DNA of 64,000 bases from Dictyostelium discoideum (GCA_000004695.1 CM000151.3:2720001-2784000); one strand, 5' to 3'. Positions 28,801-62,330 are shown, numbered from the stretch's first letter. The notes: generated by a model from the sequence alone, not told the origin. Numbers and translations: made by a program.

Positions 28801-29130
28801 AGTTAAAATGGATTCTAACTTTATCGGTTGAGTTGAAAGAAGTCGCACAAATTTTGTAACTTAAAAAAGAACTAAGGTTTCTATTTCAACCTCTGTTTTT
28901 AATTTTTTCCAAAATATTAAAACCGCAATAAGGCTACGACATCAATAAAATTGAAATATTTGCTTATTGTGAATTCTCACACGGTATATTGTGTAACACA
29001 CACCACCCAGGTTTAACTTCATGAACGCACCGTCAATAGGAATTCACTACAGCAGCGTAGTCAAATTAAATAATAAAATTCACTACGCTACTGTAGTGAA
29101 ATTTTATGGAAAATTCCCTCCAACAATAAT
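28801..29130 (+). mobile_element. Short (~330 bp) copy of an unassigned repetitive element
   Basis: 28801..28990 matches 33535..33725 and the reverse complement of 62150..62330. It is followed by a hairpin-forming segment (aattcactacagcagcgtagtc ... cactacgctactgtagtgaaatt) and then by a repeat of flank 28310-28500 at 29150-29350. Confidence 0.5.
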
Positions 29131-30962
29131 AATTAAAAAAGAAAATAATTTGGATTATTTTTTTTTTAATTTAATAAAAGTAGGAGATATAAAAAATATA
29201 TAAAAAATATAAAAAAAAAATAAAAAAATTTAAACTTTTAAATAATATGTTTGAAATTATTTGATTTTTTTTTTTTTGATTTTTTTTTTTTAATTATTTT
29301 TTTTTTTTGACTAAAAATAGTGTTTTACTATGGGACGAAAAGAGTTTTTTTAATCCACCTCCTTCCTTATTATTTTACATATATCCAAATTATTAATTAA
29401 TTATCCATATTTTTTGGATTCTATCCTTTTTTTATTTTTTATCACCACTAAAGAGATATTCCTTAAAAAAAAAAAAAAATAGAGAAAATAAGGAAAAATA
29501 GATAAATTTTTTTAAATTTTTTTTTCTTAAAAAACTGCAAATAAAAATAAAAACTAGACTGTTTGGTTATTAAAATGAATATTTATTTATATTTTTAAGA
29601 TTTTTTTTTATTTTTTTTTTTTCAAAAGATATGAAAAAATTTTGATCAGTAAAAAAAAATTTAACAATTTAATTTTAAAAAAATAATTATAAAATCCCAA
29701 TCTAAGCAATGAGAAAGATATAAAATAATTTGTTTTGTTTTTAATTCAAACAATGAGAAAGATATAAAATGATTCTATTTATATTTAATTTTTTTTTTTT
29801 TTTTTTTTTTTTTTTTTTTTTTTTCTTTGGACTCCATTTTATCTAGGCATTTAATTAGACAAAACTTAAATAAAGATAATTACAAAAAATATATGAATGA
29901 AAATTTTTAAAACCCTATAGATATTGGGCAGATATGATAATTTCAAACCTTTTTTTAATTTAAAAAAAAAAAAAAAAAAATATCTTGCACGGGAAAAAAA
30001 AACCTAGTAAAATGTTAAATTATTTAAAAAAAAATAAAAATTCTTATATTTTAATATTTTTTATTTAAATATTTATTGTACACCCATTATTTTTTATCAT
30101 TTTATTATAGTTTTTAATAATCTACAATATATTAAACTATAGTTTAATGTTTTAAAAAATGAGAAATTTCAATAGTATTATTTCCTATTAATTGTTGTAT
30201 ATTATTAAATTATAGTTTTATGTTTTAAAAAATGAGAAATTACAATAGTAAAATTTCTCACAATATGGTAAATCAATAAATTTTTTATAATTTAATGACA
30301 AATTAATATTCAATTCTAATTAAATAATATAAGATTTTTTCAATTTTTAATTTATTAAAATATATTTTTTTTATGGCCAGATTCTTTTTAATTATTTTAT
30401 GATAATTTAATAATAAAGTGTGATTAATTATTAATTAGAAATTGATATTAGTTTATTAAAAATTTTATTATATAAAAATATTATCTAACAAACAATAAGA
30501 ATTTTTTTTTTTTTCATTAGAATTTTTGCACTTTCCCAAAAAATTCTCCATATTATTTTATTTATTTATATTTTTTATTGCGACATTAATTTCTTATTTT
30601 TTTTTATTATGAATTATGGTATATGTAAAAAAAAGTAGTAGGAATAAATTTGGAGATTTTAAATAAACCTTTTTCATGTATCTTTTAAATAATCTTAATT
30701 GAAATTATTAGTGGACATATTTTTTTTATTTAATTTTATTCATTTCATAATTCTAGTTTACTCACTTTTTGTAATTTAGGATATTCATAATATGAATAAT
30801 TTTTAATGACGGGTGCAATAAAATTTATTTTTATGTATAAATTTTTTTTTTCCATGATTTAGTATTATTAATTTTTTTTTTCTTTTTTTTTTTTAATATT
30901 TCATTTGTATTTTATTATATTTAATTTTTCATTTTCATTTTATTAAATAATTAAAAACAAAT

Positions 30963-32978
30963 ATGTATAAACTTAGTGATCCTTTTGATTATTTAAATGA
31001 TAACAGTTATTCAAATTCTAATCCAGAAGCTTTTTGGGATGAGGTTGCTAAAAAGAATGTTTTTTGGTAAATATATATCTTTTTTTTTCTTTGTTAAAAA
31101 AGAGATATTAAAATTAAAACAAAAACTAAGATTTTTAAAAATAAAAGGGAAAAAATGTATGATAAAGTTTATAGTGGCGATGAAATATATCCAGATTGGT
31201 TTAAAGGTGGTGAATTAAATACATGTTATAATTTATTAGACATTCATATTAAAAATCCTGCTAAAAGAGATCAAGATGCATTAATTTATGAATGTCCATA
31301 TTTAAAGAAAACAATTAAATTAACCTATTATCAATTATATGAAAAAGTATGTAAATTTTCAAGAGTTCTTTTAAACTTAAATGTTTCAAAAAATGATAAT
31401 GTTTTAATATTTATGGCAAATACATTAGAACCATTAATTGCAATGTTATCATGTGCTCGTATTGGTGCAACTCAATGTACATTATTCGATGGTTATTCGG
31501 TTAAAAGTTTAATAGATAGAATCGAAACAATTACACCAAAATTAATAATTACAACAAATTATGGTATTTTTAATGACGAAATCATTACATTTACACCAAA
31601 TTTAAAAGAAGCAATTGAATTATCAACTTTTAAACCAAGTAATGTAATTACTCTATTTAGAAATGAAGTTTTGGATGAAACAAAATTAAAAAAAGTTCAA
31701 AATATTCCAACTATTCCAAATACATTAAGTTGGTATGATGAAATTAAAAAATTAAAAGAAAATAATCAATCACCATTTTATGAATATGTACCAGTAGAAT
31801 CAAGTCATCCATTATATATACTTTATACAAGTGGCACAACTGGTAATACCAAAGCTGTTGTAAGAAGTAATGGTCCGCATATGGTTGGTATTAAATACTA
31901 TACATTCCGTAAAGAATCAGATATACCTCAAATTGTATTTTCAAATGCAAATATTGGGTGGGTATCATTTCATGGTTTCTTTTATGGTTTATTATCTGGA
32001 GGAAACACCTTGGTAATGTATGAAGGTGGTATTATAAAAAACGAACATATAGAAGATGATTTATGGATAGCTATTGTAAAACATAAAGTAACACATACAT
32101 TTCCATCCCCATCTGTATTTAGATACCTTATTAAAACTGATCCTGAAGGAACAATTGTACGTTCTAAGTATGATTTATCAAATTTAAAAGAAATATGGTG
32201 TGGCGGTGAAGTAATTGAAGAATCAATTCCAGAATACATTGAACAAAAGTTAAAAATAAAATGTTTAAGAGTATACGGTCAAAGTGAAATTGGCGTAACT
32301 TCATTTATTAGTGTCCATGCTTTAAATATTCCTTATAGAGCCACTGGCGTACCATCAATTTATATTAGACCATCAATACTTTCAGAAGAAGGTGAAGTTT
32401 TGAATTCAAATGAAATTGGTTTAGTTGCATTTAAACTACCAATGCCACCCAGTTTTGCAATTACATTTTATAAAAATGATGAAAAGTTTAAACAACTATT
32501 TACAAGGTTTCCAGGTTACTATGATTCAGGTGATTTAGGTTATATAGATCAAAGAGGATTTTATACAATTGTTTCAAGATCAGATGATCAAATTAAGATA
32601 AGTTGTAATAAAATTCAATTAAATACAATTGACACATCAATTTTAAAACATCCATCAGTTTTAGAATGTTGTTCTATTGGTATTTTAAGTCCAGATTGTC
32701 GTACTGCACCGATTGGTATATTGGTATTAAAAGAAAATCCATCAATTGATTTAAATAAATTACAAAATGAAATTAATAATATCATCACGCAAGATATTGA
32801 ATCACTGGCAGTCTTAAAAAAAATAATAGTTATTAACCAATTACCAAAAACAAAAGTTGGTAAAATTCCAAGACAAATTTTATCAAATTTATTAAATGAT
32901 CCAAACTATCAATTACCAGACGATGTCAATGACTCTGAACTATTTTATAAAATCAAAGAGTTATATATGAAAAATTAA
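30963..32978 (+). CDS. Acetyl-CoA synthetase-like acyl-CoA ligase, paralog J (intact; 2 exons)
   Basis: Exon 1 is 30963..31066, the intron is 31067..31147, and exon 2 is 31148..32978 (607 aa ORF). Confidence 0.85.
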
Positions 32979-33534
32979 TTTTAGCAAAGTTTTTGTAAAT
33001 TGTTTTTGTTCTAAAAAAAAAAAAAAAAAAAAAGAGTAATAATAATTAAAAAAGAAAATAATTTGGATTATTTTTTTTTAATTTAATAAAAGTAGGAGAT
33101 ATAAAAAATAAATAAAAAATATAAAAAAAAAATAAAAAAATTTAAACTTTTAAATAATATGTTTGAAATTATTTGATTTTTTTTTTTTTTTGACTAAAAA
33201 TAGTGTTTTACTATGGGACAAAAAGAGTTTTTTTAATCCACCTCCATCCTTATTGTTTTGTTTAAAGGGGTTTTCTCCCGTTGTAATTTAATTAATTTTA
33301 AATTAAATTTAATTTTCAAAAAAAAAAAAAAAAAAAAAAAAAAAAAAAAAAAAAAAAAAAAAAAAAAAAAAATATATTTTAATTTCACAAAAGTTTTCAT
33401 AATAGATATTAGATACCAGATATTAAAAAAATGTCACACAAAATCACCACATAAAATAATAATATAAATTCAAAAATAATTTAATTAAAAAGAAAATAAT
33501 AATTAATTAGAATAAAATTAAAATAATATAATAT

Positions 33535-61319: not shown

Positions 61320-61529
61320 ATGTTAAAATTTTTAATGGTTATTTTAGTGGTGATCTCATTGCTTTCAATTTTTGATGTTGCAAATGGAAAAAATCTTCTA
61401 TGTATGGAAAATTGCATTAAAGAAGCAGTGGATTATCCATTTAAATGTGTATTTGGAACTCCAGTAACTACACAATGTAGCTTACTTATATATAAATGTT
61501 CTGTTAAATGCTCTTCCTTACACTACTAG
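61320..61529 (+). CDS. Small secreted cysteine-rich peptide (69 aa)
   Basis: Signal peptide MLKFLMVILVVISLLSIFDVANG, then a mature peptide with 6 Cys (CMENCIKEAVDYPFKCVFGTPVTTQCSLLIYKCSVKC). Confidence 0.45.
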   Translation: MLKFLMVILVVISLLSIFDVANGKNLLCMENCIKEAVDYPFKCVFGTPVTTQCSLLIYKCSVKCSSLHY

Positions 61530-61539
61530 TTCCAGCCTC

Positions 61540-62330
61540 TAAATGGATTGAATTGAAATAATTTTTTTAGTGTTTATAAAAGGAAATTCTAAAAATAAAC
61601 TAAATTTAAAAATAATAAAATTTTTTAAAATTCGAAAACAGTCAGCTGGTAAACTATAACAACTGGTGGTCGGTGTCATCATGTTAGTTTTTCCTAATGA
61701 TTTCTTCATTGTGTTGATTATTGTTGCTGAGGTTATTGGTATTGTTACATTAGGTGACGATGGTGGTGTTGAGTGATTATTTGGTTGTTGTTGTGATTGT
61801 TGACTCATTAATTGGATATGTTGCTGAAGTAGTTGATTCTGTTAATCTATTACCTGTTGTTGTTCTTTTATTTGACGTTGTTGTTCATTAAATACTGAAA
61901 CCTGTGGTGGAGGTTGTTCTTGTTGTTGTTGTTGTTCATTATCTTGTTGTTGAAGTTCATTATTATCAATATCTTCATTATTGTTATTATTATTGTTATT
62001 TTTATTATTATTAGTTGACATTCTTAAAATAAATTATTTAATAAAGTTTGATAATTTATTATTGTTGATTTTGAATTGTTATTTTATTATTACTGAATTT
62101 ATTATTATTATTAGTAGTAAAATAAACTATTAATTTTTTAAGGAATAAATGTACACAAATTAATTAAAGACCATAGCCCTATCGCGTTTTTATTATGTTG
62201 TATCTTTTTTATTACTGAGGTTGGATTAGAAACTTAATTTCTTTTTATAGTCCTCAGATTTGAGCAAGCTCAAATCTGTTATCAACTCCAACCTTCAGCC
62301 GATAGGGTTGGATCTAAATTAAATTTCATT
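61540..62330 (-). mobile_element. Larger copy of the repetitive element seen at 33535..34005, inverted orientation, with a Q/N-rich ORF
   Basis: The reverse complement of 62150..62330 matches the 33535..33725 terminal structure. The minus-strand ORF (includes 61539..61808: MSQQSQQQPNNHSTPPSSPNVTIPITSATIINTMKKSLGKTN...) is homologous to 33720..34005. The upstream minus-strand text encodes MSTNNNKNNNNNNNEDIDNNELQQQDNEQQQQEQPPPQVSVFNEQQRQIKEQQQ. Confidence 0.55.

Follow-up and report, generated by a model that had tools for sequence, protein, structure and literature searches.

DGLT-A, a Ty3/gypsy retrotransposon of the dictyostelids, has no chromodomain, and its solo long terminal repeats (LTRs) were formerly known as H3R (PMC5006619). 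Skipper-1 and Skipper-2 (formerly DGLT-P) are chromoviruses, Ty3/gypsy LTR retrotransposons of the same host, Dictyostelium discoideum; Skipper-1 has an LTR of 390 bp, a chromodomain, and a polypyrimidine tract instead of TGG, and Skipper-2 has an LTR of 208 bp and lies downstream of tRNA genes (PMC5006619). The same genome carries Tdd-4 and Tdd-5, which are DNA transposons (Ginger2), reportedly make 5-bp target-site duplications (TSDs) and have terminal inverted repeats of 260-297 bp (PMC2836005). Here we describe a further repeat family, represented in a 64,000-nt stretch of D. discoideum AX4 chromosome 2 (GCA_000004695.1 CM000151.3:2720001-2784000; the window), for which a preliminary description had reported three copies of an unassigned element (labelled A, B, and C below), two of them facing each other across about 27.5 kb. 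We conclude with high confidence that B and C are solo LTRs of a low-copy Ty3/gypsy retrotransposon of the D. discoideum species group, that A is most likely an artefact, and that the pairing of B and C is coincidental.

B and C are assigned to solo LTRs because the open reading frame (ORF) that they carry is the N-terminus of a Gag protein that elsewhere reads into a Gag-reverse transcriptase (RT)-RNase H-integrase coding region. The ORF runs in frame past the LTR end (...DDTDHQLLH/GSFSSGCKV...; the slash in this and later sequences marks the junction) within a protein of ~370 residues. This read-through into a Gag-like protein is found in DDB_G0294302 (AX4), ACTFIT_009742, and ACTFIZ_007629, and a homologous ORF runs on into Gag in P0073, P0081, and P0083. 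In the DNA, the junction ...GTTGTTACA/TGGTAGCTTCTC, present in loci L006 and L007, places TGG directly after the LTR end, and TGGTAGC at +0 is a putative signature of a primer-binding site (PBS). L007 (GCA_054859235.1, from D. cf. discoideum) contains a 6-kb element (9266-15252) that opens with a unit of the family (9266-10339) bearing the usual left terminus, continues through Gag with a CCHC knuckle (26.2 bits), RVT_1, RT_RNaseH, Integrase_H2C2, and rve, and finishes with the ORF-bearing 342 bp in a second copy (97% identical), which ends in ...TTGTTACA. The integrase ORF of L007 ends inside the start of this 3' repeat. Pfam returned nothing above threshold for the LTR-borne ORF; differences between the ORFs of copies L002a and C are distributed over codon positions 1/2/3 as 8/7/27, a pattern indicating real coding sequence on which purifying selection acted in the family's active period.

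With DGLT-A the family shares the Ty3/gypsy order of Gag with CCHC knuckle, RT, RNase H, and integrase, the absence of a detectable chromodomain, TGG just after the left LTR, and survival in D. discoideum for the most part as fragments and solo LTRs. The L007 integrase, which represents one degenerate sister-species copy, gave no match to Chromo up to E = 10 in its last 262 residues, and the ~60-85 residues that follow the GPY motif hold no recognizable domain. The family differs from DGLT-A in the length of the LTR (1.03-1.2 kb vs. 265 bp), in the PBS (TGGTAGCTTCTC at 0 bp vs. TGGCGACATCGTCTTTC 2 bp after the LTR), in that no polypurine tract is seen before the 3' repeat, and in having the gag start codon inside the LTR. 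DGLT-A is located 13-33 bp upstream of tRNA genes, whereas ARAGORN finds no tRNA genes in the window, L001, L002, or L006-L009, and none within 10 kb of the examined copies. The resemblance to Skipper consists of a pyrimidine run (CTTCTCTTCT) after the left LTR and, for Skipper-1, the lack of a tRNA-gene preference; Skipper-2, in contrast, sits 8-23 bp downstream of tRNA genes. Skipper elements also have a chromodomain, of which there is none in the single integrase examined here, and they differ from the present family in that the latter has TGG and an LTR of ~1.1 kb rather than 390 or 208 bp. In yeast Ty1 the gag start codon likewise lies inside the 5' LTR, and solo LTRs carry a truncated gag ORF; this serves as a working analogy only, because Ty1 is a copia-type element of an unrelated host with a 334-bp LTR, and no homology is implied. 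The family works in the manner of DGLT-A or Skipper but, as judged by published features, matches none of DGLT-A, Skipper, and Tdd.

The other members of the family were reached through the ORF, a search with which yielded two D. discoideum proteins; their loci on other contigs, L001 and L002, hold three more copies. Eight more proteins, from AX4 and from other assemblies that carry the label D. discoideum or D. cf. discoideum, came from an exhaustive search with HMMER. The copies at L001 9167-10327 and L002 3716-4912 (L002a) are both full-length, with 97% identity between them, and the copy at L002 9441-10489 (L002b) is rearranged, its last 190 nt being inverted and located ~130 nt away from the remainder. 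A solo copy in D. cf. discoideum (L008 6157-7188) is 90.5% identical to the L007 unit. The units are dispersed, 1.03-1.2 kb in length, and bounded by TGTAACAA...TTGTTACA, termini that form a perfect 8-nt inverted repeat; the left end TGTAAC(AAGATC)TCA... is common to full copies, and the right end ...CCAGTTGTTACA is common to all. Both TGTAACAA and TTGTTACA are present in L001, L007, and L008; the left end of L002a and both ends of C are degenerate, and the right end of B is intact.

Insertion is recorded both by TSDs and by unoccupied target sites. Each of the three intact solo copies has a perfect 5-bp TSD exactly outside its ends (AGTTT in L001, CATAT in L002a, and AAGTA in L008), and we estimate the probability of a chance match at ~0.004 per copy at this base composition; in L007 the full element has TTTTT on either side. 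A paralogous empty site for the L002a insertion exists in the window itself, at 30016-30409 (+): the sequence is uninterrupted there, and the joined left and right flanks of L002a align with it contiguously over the insertion point (89.6% over 404 nt). This interval, between units 6 and 7 of an array of AMP-binding genes, is repeated sequence, ~90% identical to the locus on the other contig (L002 3608-3715 plus 4918-5200). For B, the unoccupied target is in array unit 6 (GGTT/ATTAA, 29564-29573, +), the counterpart of the right junction of B (ACA/ATTAA), such that the unit-6 junction 29568/29569 corresponds to the B junction 34000/34001; the sequences that follow (29569-29986 and 34001-34411) are 96% identical, and homology begins exactly at the LTR end.

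Within the window, B and C match each other by blastn in inverted orientation (E = 1e-95 and 1e-80), separated by 27,654 bp; their ORFs face inward, as the preliminary description had reported. That description was correct in recognizing these two copies, but the extents, here set by comparison with further family members, change from 33535-34005 to 33250-34000 for B and from 61540-62330 to 61655-62722 for C. B (33250-34000, +) is a 5'-truncated solo LTR of a young subfamily, 95-96% identical to L001, L002a, and L002b. From its 5' end ~270 nt are gone, an internal 153-nt deletion takes out the gag ATG, and a 14-nt deletion lies within the hairpin described below. The right end (...CAGTTGTTACA/ATTAA) matches that of the family, and the 5' junction (TCC/TTATTGTTTTG) shows microhomology with the homologous sequence of unit 6. 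Inside B are an A55 homopolymer (33318-33372, +), at a place where all copies, including those of the sister species, have an A-tract; the hairpin domain (33556-33669, +); and a Gag N-terminal coding remnant (33690-34000, +), which has no start codon, is open to the LTR end, and has its stop codon in the flank (34007-34009).

C (61655-62722, -), a solo LTR of 1,068 nt, is older and essentially full-length; it can be aligned with L001 and L002a from one end to the other and has degenerate termini (TATACAAC... and ...GTTGTTATA). Its hairpin domain occupies 62177-62307 (-), and its Gag N-terminal ORF (61655-62021, -; ATG at 62021) carries two disabling lesions, an in-frame TAA at codon 60 and, near the end, a 1-nt deletion. 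C is also found, at 99.87% identity, in L003, a second laboratory-type assembly. Several exact-protein look-ups near B and C produced no match, and the window contains no internal part of the retroelement. B is young and C is old; they represent independent insertions, and both are inert relics that have no enzyme gene and whose ORFs are disabled; they contribute at most a promoter and a short pseudo-ORF, and the 27.6 kb between them are not mobilisable. Four gene models of the family, DDB_G0271474 (AX4), ACTFIT_010762, ACTFIT_009637, and a gene call over C (L003 20674-21106), are annotated as ordinary hypothetical genes; ACTFIT_009637, a "gene" of 216 residues, begins in the rearranged copy at L002 9441-10489. 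A literature search for the gene identifiers of the family gave no match.

The hairpin motif on which the preliminary description had relied (ccctatcg, ctgaggttgaa...ttcaacctcag, and cgataggg) is real but is not terminal. The motif (CCCTATCG, CTGAGGTTG(G/A)A...T(T/C)CAACCTCAG, and CGATAGGG) folds more stably than shuffled sequence in both B (z = -4.5) and C (z = -6.1), and lies ~550-690 nt into an element of ~1,150-1,200 nt, the true ends being TGTAACAA... and ...TTGTTACA, on the 5' side several hundred bases more distant. In B, helix H1 is formed by CCCTATCG and CGATAGGG and helix H2 by CTGAGGTTGAA and TTCAACCTCAG, and the palindrome H3 has collapsed, with one arm lost. In C (all -), the arms are 62307-62300 and 62184-62177 for H1, 62298-62287 and 62225-62215 for H2, and 62278-62269 and 62264-62255 for H3, which is a perfect 10-bp palindrome. 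The palindrome is situated at 62278-62255 in the window, ~9745-9770 in L001, and ~4300-4325 and ~9740-9765 in L002. The three helices are almost invariant over seven copies, with one varying pair (G-C, G-U, or A-U). H1, the CTGAG/CTCAG base of H2, and both termini are among the best conserved blocks between the LTRs of D. discoideum and D. cf. discoideum, and the diverged copy L009 retains H3 with one pair changed. The seven-copy alignment contains no double-sided covariation and does not exceed shuffles, so covariation is evidence neither for nor against an RNA structure.

The 4-nt loop of H3 is different in every copy (TTCG, TCTG, CGAA, and CTTG), the 10-bp palindrome being otherwise invariant. 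Because the loops vary, those of L001 (TTCG) and L002b (CGAA) are reverse complements, and one arm has been lost in B, the palindrome suggests flipping or instability at the DNA level. We propose that the hairpin probably functions in cis within the LTR leader. Two other identities were discarded: a tRNA-like or short interspersed nuclear element, because in spite of A-box-like and B-box-like strings ARAGORN gives no hit and the sequence does not fold into a cloverleaf; and a Dictyostelium upstream sequence element (DUSE)/TGTG promoter, because the motifs are imperfect and their order and spacing are wrong.

Two rival accounts concern the nature of the unit and of its hairpin. The unit might be a DNA transposon of the cut-and-paste type that is non-autonomous and depends for its movement on the integrase-like transposase of Tdd-4/Tdd-5, with which it shares TG...CA termini and 5-bp TSDs in the same genome; moreover, each of the D. 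discoideum copies seen is a unit of ~1.1 kb that has no retroelement genes inside. We consider this improbable, since the terminal inverted repeat has 8-10 nt rather than 260-297 bp and there are no other terminal repeats, a Gag-RT-RNase H-integrase coding region begins, in frame, with this ORF (L007, L006, and DDB_G0294302), which belongs to a retroelement, and TGG follows directly after the right end. A terminal-repeat miniature element was likewise rejected, because the 1.15-kb unit has no internal direct repeats. As for the hairpin, its stable fold, the conservation of its blocks across species with one pair alternating between G-C, G-U, and A-U, and the retention of H3 with a changed pair in L009 would also be expected of a small structured non-coding RNA gene family that has its own upstream promoter and was duplicated together with neighbouring sequence. 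Such a gene family is nevertheless highly improbable: the hairpin matches no Rfam family at threshold (the best is SNORD103, with 26 bits against a cut-off of 45), double-sided covariation is lacking, the DUSE-like motif (CACCAT/CACCAC) has CC instead of CCC and stands ~100 nt rather than ~60 nt upstream of the hairpin, and the hairpin is always found at the same place inside a TSD-flanked element.

The remaining rivals concern what the copies in the window represent. Self-BLAST shows three similar stretches, which the preliminary description took for three copies, but only B and C are real, and "copy A" (28306-29032, +), a 727-nt insert after array unit 6, is most likely an artefact, probably a slipped Sanger read of the B region that was misassembled behind unit 6. 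A and B lie at the same offset (4,738 bp) behind units 6 and 7, and their flanks are 98-100% identical, with 28306-28630 matching the B flank at 33044-33368 in 325 of 325 positions; identity falls to ~78% right after the A55 tract, and the sequences become unalignable ~400 nt later. Given that A stands in the reference sequence, this ~78% could be read as age, making A a genuine ancient third copy, or else A could be a real AX4-specific rearrangement. We regard both as unlikely. A is not an old independent copy, because it has the private 14-nt and 153-nt deletions of B, and its flanks match those of B. In 82 of the 93 substitutions between A and B, the base in A equals the adjacent base in B (47 expected), whereas three control pairs of truly diverged copies stay at expectation (37 vs. 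39, 13 vs. 15, and 9 vs. 12); because the substitutions are neighbour-base shifts, A is read as an out-of-phase trace after polymerase slippage. Its 727 nt correspond to the length of one Sanger read. The segment 28306-29032 is missing from the independent assembly L004 (GCA_054883475.1), which is elsewhere 99.2-99.96% identical and in which unit 6 is followed by an intact 115-bp miniature inverted-repeat transposable element (MITE; TGTTGTAGGGAATTTTC...GAAAATTCCCTACAACA) with the duplication ATAAT. Ectopic gene conversion was dropped as the source of the A/B discrepancy on account of the common private deletions and the neighbour-base shifts. The preliminary description had also entertained a composite arrangement, that is, a transposon with the inverted B and C as arms able to move the 27.6-kb gene block between them, which the inverted geometry and the inward ORFs would suit. 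It is hardly tenable, however: by the identity matrix, C is ~86% identical to all other copies, B included, whereas the copies on other contigs match B at 95-96% identity; the outer terminus of B is gone; there is no transposase, the ORF being a Gag N-terminus disabled in both; and the sought TSD outside the pair is absent. In the wild D. discoideum strain L005, ~30 nt stand in place of window 33062-34265: the B segment is gone, yet the gene order (last AMP-binding gene, 121-residue gene, and large N-rich gene) is kept, and adjacent genes of the interval are present and collinear. A composite element is excluded because the arms are without enzyme, one outer end is missing, the ages differ, and an outer duplication is lacking; that the two copies face each other is coincidental, and the other suggestion of the preliminary description, fragments of a dispersed transposon family, is borne out.

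Several observations weigh against reading B and C as solo LTRs and A as an artefact. The repeats of L007, the sole full-length relative recovered, are unequal, with 1,074 bp at the 5' end and only the last 342 bp at the 3' end; either its 3' LTR has been deleted in part, or the 5' 730 nt are not strictly LTR. No polypurine tract precedes the L007 3' repeat, where the sequence is ...ACATCATCCTTTGTTTGATA. Full-length elements with two long LTRs were not encountered, and D. discoideum yielded no full-length element at all, only gag fragments (L006 and DDB_G0294302). The TSD of C is not preserved (flanks CACAT and GTTTA), and none can be read at B. L004, which does not have A, may be a different laboratory strain, so that a real rearrangement specific to AX4 keeps some probability. 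For the asymmetry of L007 we favour secondary deletion in a degenerate copy, a preference that draws on one example, because nearly all other occurrences of the ORF segment with upstream sequence carry the long 5' part; it accompanies the ORF segment in B, C, L001, L002a, L002b, the L007 5' end, L008 (two copies), and L009, and L006, with the ORF segment without the long 5' part, is the exception.

Self-priming, by complementarity of the LTR to the PBS, was assessed by eye and rejected, as only GCUAC pairs and this is not conserved in L007. A relation to DIRS-1 was prompted by a fused model (P0072) with a tyrosine-recombinase tail, which was put down to an insertion, nested or adjacent, within a repeat cluster (L006 and L009); the relation was rejected because TSDs are not known from DIRS-type elements and because the integrase of L007 is of the rve type. 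Gag fragments of the family cluster with RT and tyrosine-recombinase (DIRS-like) fragments at L006 6500-12400 and L009 11600-17500, and the gene model ACTFIR_009415 joins a recombinase tail to the LTR ORF. These clusters look like nested insertions in repeat-rich regions.

The AMP-binding (acetyl-CoA-synthetase-like) gene array behind which A and B are placed extends over 300-6900 (-) and 14000-33000 (+) and comprises seven direct and three inverted units. The AMP-binding ORF at 31155-32978 is DDB_G0273365 (100% identity), and its neighbour is DDB_G0273229; these two genes represent units 7 and 6, respectively. Because the units are 98% identical across the gene but only 86% identical in the 3' flanks, gene conversion limited to the coding part is suggested. 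The palindromic MITE of ~115 bp, with TG...CA ends, occurs at 29033-29137 in the window, where in the AX4 reference the suspect segment takes the place of its left 25 nt, and at L001 1470-1565 and 15726-15828; the intact copy is at L004 12083-12197, and unit 7 has an empty MITE site (GAGTAATAATAATTAAAA). Some 320 bp beyond the outer end of C is a dispersed repeat (63038-63911), 91% identical to L001 3387-3907. It holds a perfect palindrome that Rfam labels mir-7131, a hairpin scoring on both strands, and mir-7131 at 63055-63141 is the sole Rfam match passing threshold when the window, B, and C are scanned in gathering and E-value modes. The repeat is probably a thug-S element; thug-S has been reported as a source of multicopy microRNAs (PMC4894637, PMC6161686).

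The LTR, which is unusually long, is organized, from 5' to 3', as an A-tract, an AT-rich promoter-like stretch, the G+C-richer conserved hairpin, an AT-rich leader, and the gag start with the first ~110 codons. In full-length elements, gag reads through the LTR end and the TGG PBS-like sequence into the rest of Gag-Pol. The TSDs and the paralogous empty site show that copies arrived by integrase-mediated insertion with duplication of 5 bp of target; recombination between LTRs would then have deleted the internal part and left one LTR. A microhomology-mediated deletion may later have removed the 5' third of B together with some host DNA. A would be a Sanger read of the B region that went out of phase after A55 and was assembled behind the near-identical unit 6.

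For the AX4 genome, these results remove a suspected 27.6-kb mobile unit, leaving ordinary chromosome flanked by two relics of unrelated age, and they flag ~730 bp of the chromosome 2 reference as probably spurious, a segment that conceals a small MITE insertion which an independent assembly contains. "Hypothetical proteins" such as those noted above are explained as truncated Gag ORFs inside solo LTRs. Tentatively, and with less than even confidence, we suggest that the family is an uncatalogued chromodomain-less Ty3/gypsy lineage of the D. discoideum species group, with LTRs of more than 1 kb that include the gag start and a hairpin leader, with no tRNA-gene targeting, and possibly with a longer 5' end. 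If the 5'/3' asymmetry of L007 were original rather than the outcome of deletion, a non-standard way of regenerating the 5' end would be implied. The annotation of DDB_G0271474 as an ordinary gene hints that curated repeat libraries may not hold the family. If it is truly absent from the Dictyostelium repeat catalogue, an LTR retrotransposon lineage without tRNA-gene targeting would be added to a genome that serves as a model of targeted retrotransposition.

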